Positions 16,501 to 25,306 of a DNA stretch of 64,000 nt are shown piece after piece. The DNA comes from Microbotryum violaceum (Eukaryota): the NCBI GenBank assembly GCA_001244265.2, contig LN717261.1, forward strand, positions 1,875,591 to 1,939,590, in the 5' to 3' direction. The notes under the pieces are model-generated. The model searched no databases and was not told the DNA's origin. It saw only the letters and a list, made by a program, of their open reading frames with translations. Position 1 is the first letter of the stretch. Each line of letters begins with the position of its first letter. Both the position numbers and the translations under genes were made by a program.

Positions 16501-17032
16501 CGATACGATCTCGGAGTTTTTAAAGGGGCGTGGGGGGTCAAGGAAGGTGAGTTGCGCTTGTATCTGAGCTGAGGTCCCGTGAGCAGTCGGGATCTGACAA
16601 CGAACAAGTCTCTCACAGTGTTCGGTCGATCCCCGCGTTTCGGAGCCGAATTTTATCAAAGGACAAGTCCTTTTCAGTCCGTCTTCGATAGAACGTATTT
16701 CGACGGACAGCAAGGATCGATCGGACTGGGTCGAGCTCCGTTCGGACCTCTTACTCGAAGCCCTAGATCGAACCCAAGCCGAACTTCGCAAAGTGAACCC
16801 TTACCCAACCCACGACTCCAACGCGGACGAAAGCGAAGACGTAGACCTCGAAGCTCTTTTCCACGACTCCTCCCGTCCAACTTCTTCTTCGGTACCAAGC
16901 ACGCCAGTTTCGAGACCGGATTTGAAGAGATGTTCGTCTTCGTTCCATTCGGATGAGTTGAGTGAGGCGGAGGGGTTCAGTCCCGCTTTGGGGAGGTTGG
17001 CAGAGTTCTTTCAGGGGGAGGAAGGGGGTTGA
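13519..17032 (+). CDS. Large Ser/Pro-rich low-complexity hypothetical protein (about 3 exons)
   Basis: ORFs of 504 aa and 459 aa joined by an intron GTGAGT(15030)...CAG(15120), a further donor at ~16547, and a terminal frame ending at 17032. No domain recognised. Confidence 0.6.
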
Positions 17033-18239
17033 AGGGGCGGGTGGTGAAGAAGTGCTTGCATGGTAAATCGAGAGTTTTTTTTGGGTTTTTGTCTATCGGG
17101 AGGGTGCTTGTTAGGGTTTTTATATTCTTTTATTCTACTTTATTCTTTTCCAACTCTTTTCGTGAGCCAAAGGGCACGAGAGAGCACCATTTTCGAACTC
17201 GTCGCTCAAGTGGACAGAGCTGGGAGACAGGGGAAGATCTGATATCTGATAGTCAACGTTGCGCCGAGCGTCACGTGATATCATCCATTTCGACGATGAT
17301 TTAGAAAGTGCCGAGGGGGTTCGCGAAGACTAAAAGCATCGGGTCGTAGCTATCGAAAGTGTCAAGCGTCGGTGGGAGCGTGCACGAGCTCGTCTCAAAA
17401 CCTGTTCGGAGCCGGTTCGACGCCCTATTATCTCACAAGCTCATCCCGGAGGTGATCCTTCTTGTTTGTGCTGGGTTGCTTCACAAATTTTCACCCAAAC
17501 AATGTTCATTCTCGAAGCGGTGTGTACAGCTCATATTTCGACTGGGGCTCAATCTACACAAGGAAGAGACGCAAGATTGGCACTAAAGAGACCGAGCTTC
17601 TGCTCGAGAAGAAAAAAAAACGAAGAGTCTTTGGGAGCCACAGGATATGAAAAACAGACCCCAGAAAAACCAGGAAAAAGGGCTTTACAAGCTGAACTCA
17701 GAGTCTTAGACGAGCCTTGCGGGGATGTCAGGAGCCCGTCTACGGGAGGCTAGCGAATCCATCGGGAAGGAGATGAGACTGGACACAAGAGCTGTTGGCA
17801 CGGTTCGCGGTAACGTAAGGGTTCGTCGAGAGGTCTTCGCACCACCCTCTGAGGAAGACGGCGGCACTGTGGTCATCCATCGTGACGAGGGGCTGGTCGA
17901 TGGCACCAATCTGGCCGGAGCAGGTAGGTCGCATCGGACTGTTGAATCCAGTATGGGGGGCAACTGTACCGTAAGAGGACGGAGCACATATCAGATCCTC
18001 CAGAGTACAGAAAACATCATCGGAACTGACCACGAGCCATGGGATGCTGGGCCAGACAATACATGTGCACAGTGTCCATGAGTAGGTAAGTAAGGCTTGA
18101 ACGGTTGCTGCTTAGCTAGAAAAAAGGCTTGGCCAAGCCGTAGCCGACAAATTTGGCGACGGGGACGCCTAGGTAACATTGACCGCCGTGAAAGTCGTAC
18201 CGGGGCAAGCAGAAGATCGTCGTACTGTTGCAGGTCAGA

Positions 18240-18950
18240 CCATGTTATGGTGGAACCTGTGAGATTTCGCGAAACGGGCCTTCGCCGATCGCCAAGTGAG
18301 AGCAGGGGGCGTCGTAAGCGCAGCGTCACGTGCCTCGCCGGTGACGAACCCAACCGTAACGCGATGGTGAGCCGCCCCATTACGCAGGATTGATGAATGT
18401 TGTACGCCTAGGATCTGTGGTCGATAGGCTGCAAGGTGGTCCGGCAGAGGAACTCCAGGCTCAAAGCAGATAGGAGAGATCGGCGATAACAGCCTCGTGA
18501 CGCAGGCCACGAGATCGGTCTTGTCGGCATGAGACGCTCGCGAGGCGCTCTGGTGAGACAGAGTCACTTCAAGGGCGTAATCAAAGATGTTCTCGACAGA
18601 CCGGTTCGCGTTCAAGGCCGAGAATTTCAGCGATGTGGCGGTGGCGACGGGTAGAGTTCGGCGAAGTAGATGGCCTGGACCCAACGATCCATGCGGTTTC
18701 CGGGTACAGCACCCATGGCTTGTAGGAGGCTGCCCAAAGCCTTGGCACGCTGTTGTTGTTGTTGCTGTTGTTCAGGTGACTGAGTCACCTGACTCGCAGC
18801 GGCGGCATAGTTGGGTGCGGCGGTGGCGGGGCCCGTGGCTTGCGTCTTCTTCGAGCTTATCGGGATCTGGTCGCGGGGTGGCTGGACGCTGGTGGCGGAC
18901 ACCGGTGGTGGCGGTGCCGGCGGTGGGGACCCAGGGTCTCCTGTAGACAT
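18240..18950 (-). pseudogene. LINE ORF1, N-terminal half (inverted; one frameshift near 18680)
   Basis: MSTGDPG...NYAAAAS (YAAA motif typical of L1/Tx1 ORF1) continuing into ...SHRFHHNMV at the left insertion boundary; preceded by a (TCACC/TCACT)n 5' UTR at ~19007-19045. Confidence 0.75.
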
Positions 18951-19051
18951 CTTGTCGGTGTATCACTTGTTAACTCGAGTATCGAAGACTGCGGTAGGGC
19001 GATTTCGAAGTGAAGTGAAGTGAAGTGAGGTGAGGTGAGGTGAAGGGTCGA

Positions 19052-20611
19052 GCTTCGAATCAACGTCGGTGTTCAAGGAGTCCCTTCCATGGATGCCATC
19101 ATCAAATCGTTCCAATTACTAGTGCAGGACTTGTCAGGCAAGGGACATTCGTGCCAACTTGTGCAGGTTCTGCGCATTATCAGCGTGGACAACGCCTCGG
19201 CCTTTGCCCACGTTGCCGGAGACTACTCAGCTTTCCTACACTTCGATGACGACTCCCTGTTCAAACGCCCTAACACGACCTTGAAAGAGATCCTACCTTC
19301 GAGAATCGGCCTTCCCACTCGAGGCATCCCGGTCACCGCCCTTTGCCATGACTATGAGAAGGAGGCGGCTTGCGGTAGGTGCCACTTCGTTGGTCACGTG
19401 GGAACCTGCGGACTGGATCAGGAGAGCAAGCGAAAGGAGGCTCACAACGGCAACGGCAACGGCAACACCAACGCCAACAAGAACACCATCACCAACGACA
19501 CCAACATTGCGGAGGCCGAGGCCCCCATTCCTGTGCCGGTTGTTAACAGGATCGCATCACAGAATCGCTTCGCCGGGCTCGAGGTTGAGGAGGGACAGGA
19601 GGAAGCGGTAACTGGCCAGAGCGGACAGGGGCCAGGGGAATCGGGGAGGAGGACGCTGGTGATAAGGCGGATGACGAGGACTCGGAGGACTCGGAGATGG
19701 AATCAGAGGCGACCGTGAAAACGGAGGCCATCATACTTAAGAGCGAGGACGAGTCGGTTTTAGAGGACTGCGGAGGATCCGATGGAGAGGTGATTGATGA
19801 GGATGAGGTGATGGCGGATGGAAGGGGCGAAACAGAAGGCAAGGTGGCGACGGAGATGGAGGAAAGGGAGGTGGCGACGGAGATGGAGGAAGAGGAGGTG
19901 GCGACGGAGGTGGACGATGTGGACGAGGCAGGGGGAGCGACGAAAGCGGAGAACGCGGAAGCGACGGACTTAGGGGAGACGAACAGGCTGGGCAATGACG
20001 ACGACAGCGACGCAACAGCAACCGCCGCCACCGCTTCCCGCGAATCGACACCCCACGAACCAACCCCACCTTTGTCACCCGAAACTCTTGCCAAGTCGCT
20101 TCGCGAGGGGGAGGAGTGGGACAGGATCAGAGCTAACTGGGTTGAGCAGGCACGACTCGAGCGGGACCAAAGCATCGAGAGGAGGCTCGACGCTGAAACC
20201 CCTTTGGTGCGTCACAACTTTGCCACGTGGGATGAGGACGGTGAGATACGTTCCATCAATATCAGGGGGACCGCTTCGAAGTTCAAAAAGCCGGTAATGA
20301 AGAGGTCACAGACTGCGGCGGACCTCAGTGACCCGAGTGACGAACCGACCGACGCCAAGCGAGTGATCATCAAAGGGAAGAGCCGCGTCGTTGTCAAGGA
20401 TGGAACAGAGGGGCGGAGGGTGACGAGGTCGATGTCAGCGGCGGCGGCGATGCCGGTTGGCGTGACGAAAGTGGACCGAGGGAAAGCAAAGGGGGTAGCC
20501 GAGGAGAAAAGATGGTCCGACCACGAGCCCAAGGACAATGTCCTGCCCGCCCTCCCCCTCTTTGAGGACGTCACCACCGCCAGGAGCGCTTCGACCTCAA
20601 CTACCCATTAA
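19052..20611 (+). pseudogene. LINE ORF1, C-terminal half (frameshift near 19620-19700)
   Basis: [17 protein letters not shown]... with a [13 protein letters not shown] zinc knuckle, then an acidic region; stop TAA 20609-20611. Confidence 0.8.
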
Positions 20612-23600
20612 CGATTAAGCCCACCATCATCACCTGGAACGTGAGGAGGGGTATGGGGGTCCCGGAGAAACGACGTGACATTTACAACTACCTATCCCTT
20701 TTCAAAGCATCGGCCATTCTCATACAAGAGCACTTCATCAGACCGCACCTCTGGCAACTCATCAAGGACGAGTACGAGGGCAAGCTCTTCATCAACCAAC
20801 ATTGTCTGACTCTAATTCCGGCTGACTCCCCCCTGATCGACGCCGAGCTCTTGCGCACCCACTCGGCACTCGACGGCCGGCTCCTCGTCACGTCCTTTCG
20901 TCTGCGGGGCGACATCAAAATTCTAGAAATCAACAACATTTATGCACCTGTTGACCCAAAGCAACGAGCGAAATTCTTTGACAAACTCTTATTTCACAAA
21001 ACATAGAAATCCCATCTCCGACTCCTTGGCGGTGATCTCAACGACTGCCCGCGCCCAGAAGTCGATCGGCGGAACCAAAGTCGGCGCGGCCACCACTGGC
21101 CAATCCTGATCGGCAAGCTCGACTCGGCCTACACGGACTGCATCCGCTACAAACACCCCATCACCCCATCCTTCACTCGACCTAATCCCAATCGCAAGCG
21201 ACCCAACTCCTTCTCCCGGCTTGACTACTTTCTCCTGCAACGGACACACCAAAAAAGACTCGATCAGGCCTCGACGATCTACGACTATCCCAAGGAGCTT
21301 TCCGATCACCGACCGGTCTTGATTGTGCTGGCTCTCTCAGACGATCCTGATGCGACCCTCCCACAGCTCAGCCTACCTACCACATCAAACCAACTACATC
21401 GAATCAACACCACAACCTTTAAGACGGTGGAATTCCAGCGGATGATGGAAGGATGGTTGGAAGGGGCAAGCGGGGAGGAACCGGTGGGGAGCTCGAGGTC
21501 ATTCTGAAGGCGTGCAGGGATAGGGGTGGGGAGATGGCGAGGAGGCTGCATCGGGAGCGGACGGAACGGATGGAGTATTTGGTGGGGAGGGTGCAGGATC
21601 TGGAGGCGATACCGGAATGGGGGGAGGCGGAAACGGCAGAATGGACAAGGACGTCCGAGGAACTCAAGCGGGCGGTCGAGGAGCGCGCGCGCCTACTCCG
21701 GATCCGAGCCCACGTACCCGAGATCGCCTCCGAGGAACGACTGTCGCGGCCGGTCCACGCCAAGCTTGCGGCGCGGAACTCGGACTCCAAGATCACAGCA
21801 CTGCGCTTGAGCAACGGAGAGCTAACGCATGACATTGATGTCGCTCTTGACCACACGCAGGCGCATTTCCAGCGCCTCTACCACATCGAGCCTCGTGACC
21901 CGGACCGCGTCGACCGACTTCGGGACGAATTCCTCGCGCCGATCAGGGCGGCGCGGACTTGCGACGACCCGCGCTCGGATCCTCGCTTTCTGCGCCGACT
22001 CTCGGAATCGCAGATCGACTTACTCCAGGAACCAATCAACGAGGACAAGGTCGTGGCCGTGATTGGGACGACGCACCTGGGGCGATCGCCGGGACCGTCG
22101 GGCGCGCCCTACGAACTCTACCAGACCGCACCCAAGGCGTGGGCCAAGGTGCTGACCAAGGCCTACAACGCGATGATAGAGCGAGGCTCACTCTCTCCCA
22201 AGCAGGGCCAAGGACTCGTGCGCCTCATCTTCAAGCGACACAAGAAGAATGCTGATCGCGCCGAACTTTCGGCGTACCGGCCGATCACCCTGCGCGAGTG
22301 CGATTACAAGATCTTTACCAAGGTCTATGTCGCCCGTTTGAACCAAATTCTACCGGATCTCCTCCCGCCGCAGCAGCACGGATTCGTCAAGGACCGCCGA
22401 TCGGCTGACGCTGCACTACACCTTCGTCTCCTGATCGAGGAAGTTGGCGCGCGCAGGACCGAGTTCCCCGCGGCCGCACTCTTATCTCTTGACCAATCGT
22501 CCGCCTACGACCTCGTCGAGCATGACTGGATCTTTGCCATCTTTGACGCTCTGGGCGCTCCTGCCACCTTTCTTCGCGTGCTGAGGATGCTCTACTCGGG
22601 TGACTCGACCTCGGCCCGCTACATCATCAATGGGTTCTTGACGGCGCCGGTACGACTGACGTGTGGGCTCGGCCAAGGGGACCCGGCGTCGTCGTCGGTC
22701 TGGGACATCGTGTTTCAGCCGTTTCTGGATGCTCTACACCGTCGAAACATCGCGCTGAATCTCTCCGTACCTGCACTTCATCCGTACCCACAGAGCCGCG
22801 CCATTACATCGCTTGCTTTTGCCGATGACGTTGTCGTCGCCGTCGCGGGCTTGGGGTCACTCAACTTGCTCGATGACCTGGCGCTCGACTGGAGGCATGC
22901 AACGAATGGCCGGCTCAACACGGACAAGACGGTCGTCCTACCGATCGGACGCCGCTGGGACCCGGGGCAACGCCCGCTCGTCGTCAAGGCCGCAGGCGAG
23001 TCGCTCGAGTGGATCGGCCTCCCCTTCGACCCGAGCGGCGACACCGAACTCGCCTACGCGAATCTCATCGAACGCCTCGAGGCGACGCTGGAAGGGGTTC
23101 AGCATCGCTGGCTCACACACCACACCCGTGCCTTTTACGTCAATCGGTACGCCATCCCCAAGATCCTGCACTTCCTTGCAGCCGACATCCCGCCGCCCGA
23201 AGTCGTCAAGAAGCTCGATGACATGCTCGTCGATTTCGTCCGTGGGGGCAAGGGCAGGTCCAGCTACGGCAGAGATATCGTGTTCACAGCCAAGCTCAAG
23301 GGGGGACTCGGGGTGATCAGGATGCAGGACGTCGTAGACGCGGTTGCGGCACGGATCTGGGACGTTCTTCTCGGCGGTTCGGGCGCGATCTGGCAAGGAC
23401 TTGCGCGCGTGGCACTCCAGCGAGCTCAGTCCGACCTCGACCTGGCCACCGATCTCTGGCCACATCCCTCCACTCCCATCCCCAGCGACCTCCATCCCCG
23501 ATGGCGAGCAGCATTGGGGGTTCCGAAACAGCAAGACGCGCAGGTCAACCCGAGGACCTTGACCACCGCGAACCTGCTCGCGCTTCCCACCTTGCTCGGC

Positions 23601-24629
23601 AGCCTCCACACCCCCATCAGAGGGAGACAGACCATCGACGCGGTTCATATACCTGACTACCTTCGTCTCCAGGGCTACCCGAAGGTGGCGGATCTCTACC
23701 GGCGCGAGTTGTATGCAGGTGGGGGGTTTCACCTTTGGACGCCGCCGGCGGATGTGCTCGGCGACAACAGCGAGTACGATCGACGCGGGCTCCCGCAGCG
23801 ACTGGCAATCGCGGCCTGGTACCGGTTTACTGTCGATCGACACAAGAACACGCCCTTGGCGGTGGCGGTGGCGGCAGGACGGCTCAACGTGCCTCCCCGG
23901 ATCGGCACCAGCGCACCGCTCGAGGCGATTCTCCCCAAGCCCGTGGCCCGCTTCGCAATGGAGCAGCGCCTTCCGGACCCGGTGCTTCCACAGCAGGCGA
24001 GCCAGTACAAGCTGCTGAACATGGCTCGACCGTACACCATCCGTCGCATCCGCCGGGTCCTGAACGCGAAGGCCTTTACCAACACGCTCGGGCTCAAGGG
24101 ACCACCGCAGCCGGACGACCTCAGGAGCTTTTGGAAGGCGGTCAACTCGAAGGCACTGACGGCGAGGGAGAGGGAAGTTTGGTTCAAGCTGATTCTCCGC
24201 TTCACCCCGACGCGCAAGCTGCAACACCAACAGAATCACGACACTTCTCCCGCGTGCCTCGTCTGCGAGGCGCCGGTGGACGACACCGACCACTACTTTT
24301 TCGACTGCGTTGACTCTGGGAACGTTTGGATCGCGGCAAGGAGCGTGCTCTGCGACGCACTGGGGCTCGACACGATCGACAACACGCATTACACGGCTGT
24401 TCAACGCATGTTCGGACTTCCGAAGCTCAAGGCCAGTCTACGCGATCAAGAAGGAGCGGGGAGGACGATCGAAATATTCACCGGGCTGGTCTTGGAGATG
24501 ATCAGCAGCGGGAGGTGGGGGATGCAGAAGTGGGGGACGAAGATGGAGGGTGTTGTGAGGAGGAGGATCATCTTGGAGGAGAGGTTGAAGCTGAGGGCGG
24601 GAGGAGCTTGGGGGAGGAGAGGGCAGTAG
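20611..24629 (+). pseudogene. LINE ORF2: AP endonuclease, reverse transcriptase, zinc motif; premature TAG 21004-21006 and frameshift ~21490
   Basis: APE motifs TWNVRRG, LIQEH, NIYAP, GGDLND, SRLDYFL, SDHRPV. RT motifs [40 protein letters not shown]-terminal CLVC...DHYFFDC. Confidence 0.95.
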
Positions 24630-25271
24630 AGGCTGGGTTCGACTTTCCCCCACCACCACCACACACACACACCAAATTCTCGTGACATCATTTTCTCCTA
24701 CTGTACACTAAATAGATCGCTTTCATCTTTCATTTGTTACAGGTTCACCGTTGCGGATCATGGACCATCTCGCGATTTGGCGTCGACTCGGTGTGGCTCG
24801 CGCTCTTCGGCTTCGGGGTTCTGAGTCAAGGGAGGGATCAGCGGACACAGGCAGAAAGTCGGCTTTGAGGGGCCAGGGACTGCCGATGGGGGAGGTTTTG
24901 AGGGACCTTCACCGCGTCTTGTTGTGACTGAGCAGAGACTTGGAGCGTCGAGGGTCGTGGTGGTTGCGCAGTCGTGCTCTTGTCTTCGTCTCGACCGAGT
25001 GGGAAGTGGCTGTGGGGTGGGCCTTCTGTCGTTAGTACATTTCTTTTCTTTCTTTTTTTCTCTTCATCTCTCTTTCTCTCTCTCATTAGTCTCCTGGGGG
25101 GAGCAACCGCTTGGCTAGGGCATTTGAATCCGAATCTCGGATTGGTGGACTTGGCTCGTTTCTCGCACTTTTGCGGGCGGTTTGTGTTATCATCGTAGTC
25201 TTCCATCTAGTTTTTCCGTAGGCCAAAACAGGGGGAACAGGAACTGGGGGCAATATGATGAACGTTTTCTA

Positions 25272-25306
<35 letters not shown>

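Follow-up and report, generated by a model that had tools for sequence, protein, structure and literature searches.

How an L1-type long interspersed nuclear element (LINE) in a fungal genome came to carry its 5' part back to front is the question raised by positions 18227 to 25305 of the window, by which we mean the whole 64,000-nucleotide (nt) stretch of Microbotryum violaceum contig LN717261.1 analyzed here. The original prediction described this copy as a full-length L1-type LINE with an inverted 5' segment of 0.81 kb, a description supported by tblastn, Pfam and sibling copies, and held that twin priming had made the structure. This last claim could not be established, as the structure has no bounding target-site duplication (TSD) and the 12 nt outside the inverted piece look element-borne. 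We favor, with a probability of roughly 0.55, a nearly balanced inversion within a normally inserted full-length LINE, and the details of the locus fit such a small internal inversion better than they fit twin priming. The pieces that bear on the question are listed below by window position (UTR, untranslated region; ORF, open reading frame).

18201 to 18211, plus strand: left copy of an 11-nt direct repeat (CGGGGCAAGCA), a possible but displaced TSD
18212 to 18226: 15-nt spacer from the 11-mer to the putative element tip, within the single-copy flank contig in all four public runs described below
18227 to 18238, plus strand: 12-mer GTTGCAGGTCAG, putative start of the LINE (its first 12 nt), in sense and adjoining the inverted piece on the left
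18238 to 19047, minus strand: inverted segment, holding the rest of the 5' UTR and ORF1 codons 1 to 238, delimited by tblastn with sibling protein P0003 and by run contigs
18950 to 18948, minus strand: ATG start of ORF1, within the inverted segment
19007 to 19045, minus strand: pentanucleotide repeat in the 5' UTR, also within the inverted segment, with CTCAC units in the sense reading
19046 to 20611, plus strand: remainder of ORF1, from codon 238 (GGTC GAG CTT...) to the stop, delimited by tblastn and run contigs
25273 to 25305, plus strand: poly(A) of 33 A
25306 to 25321: 16-nt spacer from the poly(A) to the right 11-mer
25322 to 25332, plus strand: right copy of the 11-nt direct repeat

That the 5' part of the LINE lies on the minus strand and the remainder on the plus strand was confirmed by tblastn with sibling proteins. 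Residues 1-238 of P0003 align to the minus strand from 18950 to 18238 with 98-99% identity and residues 238-437 to the plus strand from 19047, and four sibling proteins give the same picture: on the minus strand, residues 1-238 span 18950 to 18238, and the sequence from residue 238 follows on the plus strand at 19047-24626. Siblings were collected with the minus-strand ORF at 18238-18771 as query, which returned 20 proteins, all from M. silenes-dioicae, M. saponariae or M. intermedium, at 63-100% identity. All 20 are collinear across the breakpoint and read HNMVELRI(N/S)V there (18 in the same form, one as NMVELRINVS and one as NMVELRISVG), and the collinear element DNA at this point is ...CAT AAC ATG GTC GAG CTT CGA.... 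The anticipated continuous reading in collinear siblings thus holds, although its wording as HNMV-LRINV had dropped the E codon and the true reading is HNMV-E-LRINV. Since the siblings carry the segment 18240-19051 collinearly, it is not foreign to the LINE, nor is the inversion shared by all of them.

Closer inspection shifted several details of the junctions. The breakpoints, first placed at 18240 and 19051, fall between 18237 and 18238 and between 19045 and 19046, with high-copy contigs ending at 18238 and 19046. Rather than joining with no evident loss, the two arms show a small gain, as GACC at 18238-18241 equals GGTC at 19046-19049 and four element bases are therefore present twice. The inverted part, which had been taken for the first half of ORF1, holds 238 of about 716-760 codons, or roughly a third. 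The near-palindrome TCGAGCTTCGA, to which the original prediction had drawn attention at the junction, belongs to normal ORF1 sequence, being codons V-E-L-R-I that every sibling has, and is not made by the junction; its predicted folding energy of -2.1 kcal/mol was equalled or beaten by 132 of 200 shuffles.

Independent evidence on the junctions came from Logan contigs of four public runs (X1, X2, X6 and X8; three organism labels, four studies) aligned to positions 16800-26700; the results are drawn from the pieces and loose ends listed, beyond which lie a further 964 pieces and 83 loose ends. High-copy LINE contigs start or end exactly at 18238 (X1 record 2, X2 record 10, X6 record 18) and exactly at 19046 (X1 record 3, X2 record 11). 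The latter two carry 26 further letters to the left of 19046 that do not fit the window and represent the collinear majority, and X6 record 19 likewise extends 30 letters to the left of 19050 as a collinear sibling. The two arms diverge equally little from the high-copy consensus, with 3 other letters and 1 gap in 656 nt against 3 and 1 in 682 nt (X1 records 2 and 3), both being about 99.4% identical to the family consensus. Because the arms meet at the same codon and share this equal small divergence, their geometry is not a product of chance. Two independent insertions were considered as a source of the two fragments and ruled out, because the arms have 4 nt in common and come together at one codon.

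The left junction is present in all four runs as a contig covering 16800-18267, which runs from unique flank into 30 nt of antisense ORF1 with 0-1 differences at depths of 66, 25, 4 and 39, compared with about 1100-1230, 306-327, 84-111 and 585-620 for contigs of the element's 5' half. The junction of the left flank with the inverted piece is real and common to the runs. On the right, flank contigs begin about 34 letters inside the A tract in every run, such that the poly(A) adjoins target DNA. The flank contigs stop at 18267 in each of the four runs, which makes the 30-mer 18238-18267 the branch point and leaves the junction itself without a second copy; by the logic of the k-mer graph, the inversion appears private to this locus. 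A source element already inverted before it inserted was rejected on similar grounds, as the contig breaks indicate that no other copy shares the junction of 12-mer to antisense piece. Contig depth, which is not a copy number, increases along the element (in X1, for example, from 1230 in the 5' half to 3399 at the 3' end), as expected if most copies are 5'-truncated.

The observation that most directly bears on mechanism concerns the 12 letters at 18227-18238, immediately outside the inverted piece. In run X8, record 26 (1545 nt) matches 18438-19043 in consensus-like form and then continues for 938 more letters from a loose end at 19043. Read in element sense, the first 30 of these letters open with unrelated sequence, which is followed by GTTGCAGGTCAG and leads into the beginning of the 5' UTR and its CTCAC repeats. 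Positions 18227-18238 of the window are thus identical at 12 of 12 letters to those directly before the 5' UTR of a collinear sibling, while the next 6 letters upstream agree at 0 of 6, and the element contains no other match to the 12-mer at up to 2 mismatches. The mean depth of record 26 is 193, compared with about 585-620 for other contigs of the LINE's 5' half and about 40 for single-copy DNA in X8. These depths suggest that the 938 upstream letters are low-copy flank and that the sibling's element boundary therefore lies at or near the 12-mer.

Complete identity of two otherwise unrelated flanks over 12 letters at an anchored position should not be a matter of chance. On the simplest reading, the 12-mer would be the element's own 5' tip (the first 12 nt of its RNA), still in sense and joined to the left flank. 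The order along the locus then becomes sense 1-12, antisense about 825-14 and sense 822 to the end, with the 12-mer missing at the inner end of the inverted piece and standing in sense at its outer end. Provided that the 12-mer is element-borne, this is the sense-antisense-sense arrangement with conserved material that a balanced inversion leaves behind. Provisionally, on the same X8 contig, the outer end of the inverted fragment does not abut target DNA as it should after twin priming, and, with a single contig behind it, this finding makes twin priming less likely and no more than that. Further searches for the 5' end gave no matches to an exact 35-nt 5' UTR pattern in metagenome contigs, no candidate for the 61-aa open frame of the 5' UTR among proteins of 33-107 residues, and no matches to the 12-mer or its complement in 12 of the 24 supplementary files of PMC4469406.

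A second line of evidence comes from the flanks, where no direct repeat adjoins 18237/18238 or 18226/18227 on the left and 25306 on the right, leaving the two-piece structure without a bounding TSD. The 11-mer is the longest exact match between the left flank (138 nt) and the right flank (140 nt); when lengthened it agrees at 16 of 19 positions, with a score reached by 3 of 500 shuffles. Its left copy lies 15 nt from the putative 5' tip at 18227 and 26 nt from the inverted piece, and its right copy 16 nt from the poly(A). The repeat may be a TSD displaced by filler on both sides, or it may predate the insertion. Neither the 15-nt nor the 16-nt spacer has a second copy in the window at up to 2 mismatches, and they are thus not templated from nearby. 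The site itself contains no tRNA and no Rfam match better than E 0.65 that would mark an RNA gene as the target.

The sequence of events that we propose begins with an ordinary plus-orientation insertion of a full-length L1-type LINE, which would have joined the left flank to the first 12 nt of the element. Element nt about 13-825, comprising the rest of the 5' UTR and ORF1 codons 1-238, would then have been turned around as a block of 0.81 kb. Both breakpoints would fall within the element, the first close to the 5' tip, immediately ahead of the pentanucleotide repeat, and the second at ORF1 codon 238. The junctions would bear the marks of 1 nt (G) and 2 nt (GG) of possible microhomology, with about one base lost at the first breakpoint and 2-4 nt (GGTC) duplicated at the second. 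Two double-strand breaks repaired by end-joining, with fill-in of one staggered break, would suffice, as would two template switches in DNA synthesis; in both cases the event would have taken place at the DNA level, and it could date from the completion of the insertion or from any later time. Simple balanced inversions, whether made by end-joining or by replication template switching, have a sense-antisense-sense order, 1-2 nt of microhomology and a few bases lost or duplicated. The locus shares all three traits with them and departs from them in that everything took place within 825 nt of a transposon's start and one breakpoint is 12-13 nt from that end, which for a random event would be a striking coincidence.

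We favor a balanced inversion because the 12-mer matches a sibling's 5' end and is absent elsewhere in the element, because the sibling depths place the element boundary at or near it, and because the material is conserved in a case where known twin-priming variants place their extra pieces at the inner junction. The lack of a TSD bounding the two-piece structure, the equal nearness of both arms to the family consensus and the private nature of the junction argue in the same direction. Several points weigh against an internal inversion. The inner junction between 19045 and 19046 is known from the window assembly alone and is not among the listed run contigs, and the evidence for the 12-mer comes from one contig of one run. 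All four runs carry the insertion with its inverted left junction and no uninverted allele is seen there, and no adjoining TSD was found here for an ordinary insertion any more than for a twin-primed one. A random inversion of 0.8 kb with a breakpoint 12-13 nt inside the element end would have been improbable beforehand. The search for a structural cause of the breaks was negative, as the G-rich pentamer repeat fits G2N3 loosely with no G-quadruplex predicted by ViennaRNA, and the new left junction folds at -6.1 kcal/mol, matched by 21 of 200 shuffles. An arm overlap of 4 nt is also typical of twin priming, and 5' inversion is common at mammalian insertions, with figures of 18-22% of L1 insertions given in a portion of PMC12016303 and 51% of tumor L1 insertions in a portion of bioRxiv 10.1101/2024.08.27.596794.

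Classical twin priming at insertion is the explanation with which these points must be compared. The model is attributed to Ostertag & Kazazian 2001 in the parts of PMC2837659, PMC12016303 and bioRxiv 10.1101/2024.08.27.596794 drawn on here, and as described there it predicts TSDs around two inverted fragments, an outer end that is the internal priming site on the target, and a small deletion or duplication at the inversion. At this locus, cDNA primed at the poly(A) would have extended as far as ORF1 codon 238, the top strand of the target, nicked to end in ...GTTGCAGGTCA, would have primed internally at that codon and copied the RNA almost to its 5' end, and the two cDNA 3' ends would have been joined via GG/CC microhomology. 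Much of the geometry is as the model has it, with two opposite-strand fragments of one element adjacent in element coordinates and duplicated by 4 nt, the antisense breakpoint outermost, the 5' UTR at the inner junction, and a sense fragment that ends in a poly(A) of 33 beside target DNA. The element is moreover an apurinic/apyrimidinic endonuclease (APE)-type LINE related to human L1 ORF2p, and 5' inversions are frequent in mammalian L1. Against this, twin priming requires a 12/12 coincidence between the target and the sequence beside a sibling's 5' end, and it must do without a bounding TSD. Inspection against the sibling consensus shows that complementarity between primer end and RNA at the priming site is only 1 nt, and no empty site, in the form of a contig joining both flanks, appears in the four runs, which reflects absence of cover only. 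Taken together, we regard twin priming in its classical form as unlikely, if still worth serious consideration.

Comparison with twin-primed human L1 leads to a similarly mixed picture. The locus resembles those copies in its oppositely oriented pieces adjacent in element coordinates with an overlap of a few bases (4 nt here), and also in the poly(A) on the sense piece, the outermost antisense breakpoint, and an APE endonuclease with reverse transcriptase (RT). Human arm overlaps have a median of 12 bp with quartiles of 4-17 according to a section of PMC12016303 and a median of 22 bp according to one of bioRxiv 10.1101/2024.08.27.596794, and primer/RNA complementarity is sometimes lacking in human cases too, as a passage of PMC2837659 indicates. 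Unlike twin-primed human L1, the copy here has no bounding TSD, its putative 5' tip stands in sense outside the inverted piece, and its host is a basidiomycete fungus; in addition, nearly all human cases are 5'-truncated, whereas the inverted piece here reaches almost the full 5' end.

A less conventional event coupled to insertion, a new relative of the human "twin priming and switching" variants, would account for both the sense 12-mer and a breakpoint at the very start of the element. Here the second strand would have copied 12 nt of a full-length cDNA, jumped to codon 238 on a sense template, run back along it to about nt 14 and then switched a second time; alternatively, a 5' RNA fragment would have served as internal primer. 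Template-switching twin priming is reported for human L1 in part of bioRxiv 10.1101/2024.08.27.596794, where switching variants in human tumors number 20 and 3 instances, and the 5'/3' switching variants described in that part resemble the Microbotryum copy in having three pieces and needing an extra template switch. Their extra piece lies at the inner inversion breakpoint, however, while that of the Microbotryum copy lies at the outer 5' end, and none of the variants in the same part of that source yields a sense piece at the outer end. The guiding complementarity would be only 1 nt and 2 nt, a single-stranded sense template would be needed over 0.8 kb at a time when the RNA should be paired, and the scheme as a whole is pure inference; we consider it improbable. 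That the inversion arose during retrotransposition by either route, that is by twin priming proper or by an undescribed variant that kept the first 12 nt in sense, is a possibility to which we give tentative weight. Far less credible than any of these is an assembly artefact in which the join of 19045 to 19046 falsely links repeat copies and the frame shifts of this copy are homopolymer errors. The inner junction is indeed absent from the listed contig pieces, and all three frame shifts are G runs one base short of those in high-copy contigs. Yet the left and right junctions occur at single-copy depth in all four runs from four studies, assemblers do not join sequences on a 2-nt overlap, and the arms meet at the same codon, unlike those of a random false join.

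The distinction between these routes matters beyond the locus. Among 106 papers in which twin priming is mentioned, 3 also mention fungi and, judged by title or abstract, none of the three deals with a fungal LINE. Were the inversion made during retrotransposition, double priming or template switching would be on record for a fungal L1-clade LINE for the first time. If true, it would mark a side reaction general to APE-type LINE integration and not a peculiarity of mammalian L1, and should fungi use twin priming or something akin to it, 5'-inverted copies could be read there, as in mammals, as a footprint of the timing of second-strand cleavage versus first-strand synthesis. Proof of the mechanism in a fungus would be new, if unsurprising; it is not supplied by this locus, and a single locus cannot carry the claim. 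What it does offer is a caution, namely that an inverted 5' piece that joins neatly is insufficient to diagnose twin priming. The diagnosis also requires a check for a TSD around the structure and for the origin of the DNA just outside the inverted piece, both of which speak here against the simple reading. For the fungus, the outcome would be one dead LINE between convergent genes, fixed in all four sequenced samples examined.

With the 12-mer at 18227-18238 counted as its tip, the element occupies 18227-25305 as a single non-LTR (long terminal repeat) retrotransposon copy of 7,079 nt, and blastn of 17800-25700 against the whole window found this one copy and no second. Its remaining features are as follows.

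20566 to 24629, plus strand: ORF2, in the -1 frame relative to ORF1 and overlapping the end of ORF1
about 20632 to 21309, plus strand: APE-type endonuclease of ORF2
about 22242 to 22940, plus strand: RT of ORF2
about 24129 to 24329, plus strand: zinc motif of ORF2
24630 to 25272, plus strand: 3' UTR, where contig depths are the highest of the element

In the plus frames at 21007-24629, Pfam recovered the C-terminal half of Exo_endo_phos (PF03372, E 5e-06) and RVT_1 (PF00078, E 1e-20). The zinc motif family zf-RVT (PF13966) scored 25.3 bits in the window copy, where the cut-off is 27.5, and 28.4 bits, above the cut-off, in sibling P0015, and no RNase H family was found in either at E up to 1. 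In both the window copy and P0015, the APE endonuclease (PF03372) lies N-terminal to the RT (PF00078) within ORF2, as in the L1 clade. The criteria for that clade set out by Malik, Burke and Eickbush in 1999 are said to include a C-terminal Cys/His zinc motif and the lack of an RNase H domain, and the presence of the one and the absence of the other here match them. The best relative of P0015 ORF2 among solved structures is human LINE-1 ORF2p (E 6e-17 to 6e-16), with R2 proteins behind (8e-10 to 1e-08). An assignment as L1-type from domains and structure matches is therefore reasonable. The ORF1 protein matched no Pfam family at E up to 1 in the window copy or P0015, and a CCHC-like motif is visible, together with an acidic repeat region, in its plus-strand remainder (19046-20611).

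L1-clade elements have been described in M. violaceum (Hood 2005, as cited in a passage of PMC3956500), and LINEs of M. lychnidis-dioicae account for 392 copies and 6.6% of transposable element space according to part of PMC4469406. The element shares with the published M. violaceum elements the genus, APE, RT, C-terminal zinc motif and poly(A), a comparison of features and not of sequences. Long sibling models span ORF1 and ORF2, from MSTGDPGSP... to ...RAGG..GQ (e.g. P0004, 1817 aa; P0015, 1970 aa), and in such annotated siblings the two frames are fused through a modelled intron. At 20566-20611, ORF2 opens in the -1 frame within the final 46 nt of ORF1 and lacks a nearby ATG, and it may be translated by frameshift or re-initiation.

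Although full-length, the copy is not intact, as ORF1 is split by the inversion and the frames are further broken by one stop and three frame shifts. The stop is in frame in ORF2 at 21004-21006, where the window has T and the consensus C, and the frame shifts follow 18648 (inverted ORF1), 19642 (ORF1) and 21485 (ORF2); at each, the G run is one base short compared with the high-copy contigs of every one of the four runs. The shorter runs may be true deletions or homopolymer assembly errors, and the copy may be less broken than it appears; as it reads, it is presumably inactive. The 36 listed substitutions relative to the consensus are mostly transitions in which the window has T or A for C or G, often at CpG and several of them at TCG. 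Mutation resembling repeat-induced point mutation (RIP) or linked to methylation has been reported for Microbotryum in parts of PMC3318451 and PMC5381629, and the substitution pattern appears in line with either.

The element lies between convergent genes. On its left, a plus-strand ORF ends at 17032, and on its right a minus-strand ORF at 25705-26100 points towards it. The latter has a signal-peptide-like start (MVFIFPRASFVAAALLLQ...) and several cysteines, and may be a gene for a small secreted protein.

Other copies of the family show irregularities of their own. The gene model of P0019 (M. silenes-dioicae) starts just before a LINE poly(A) (MMNVFY, then KKK) and passes into ORF1 of another copy at about residue 60, which points to insertion of a 5'-truncated copy at the A tail of an older one. 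At another locus of the genome, a contig of single-copy depth in all four runs joins element position 23569 to 20625 via TAAA. This probably reflects nesting of a 5'-truncated copy inside a second one, or else rearrangement of a copy. Finally, the acidic part of ORF1 contains a 27-nt tandem repeat of 2.7 copies at 19842-19914, and a high-copy contig of X6 has one 27-nt unit fewer at 19867, such that the number of units varies among copies or strains.

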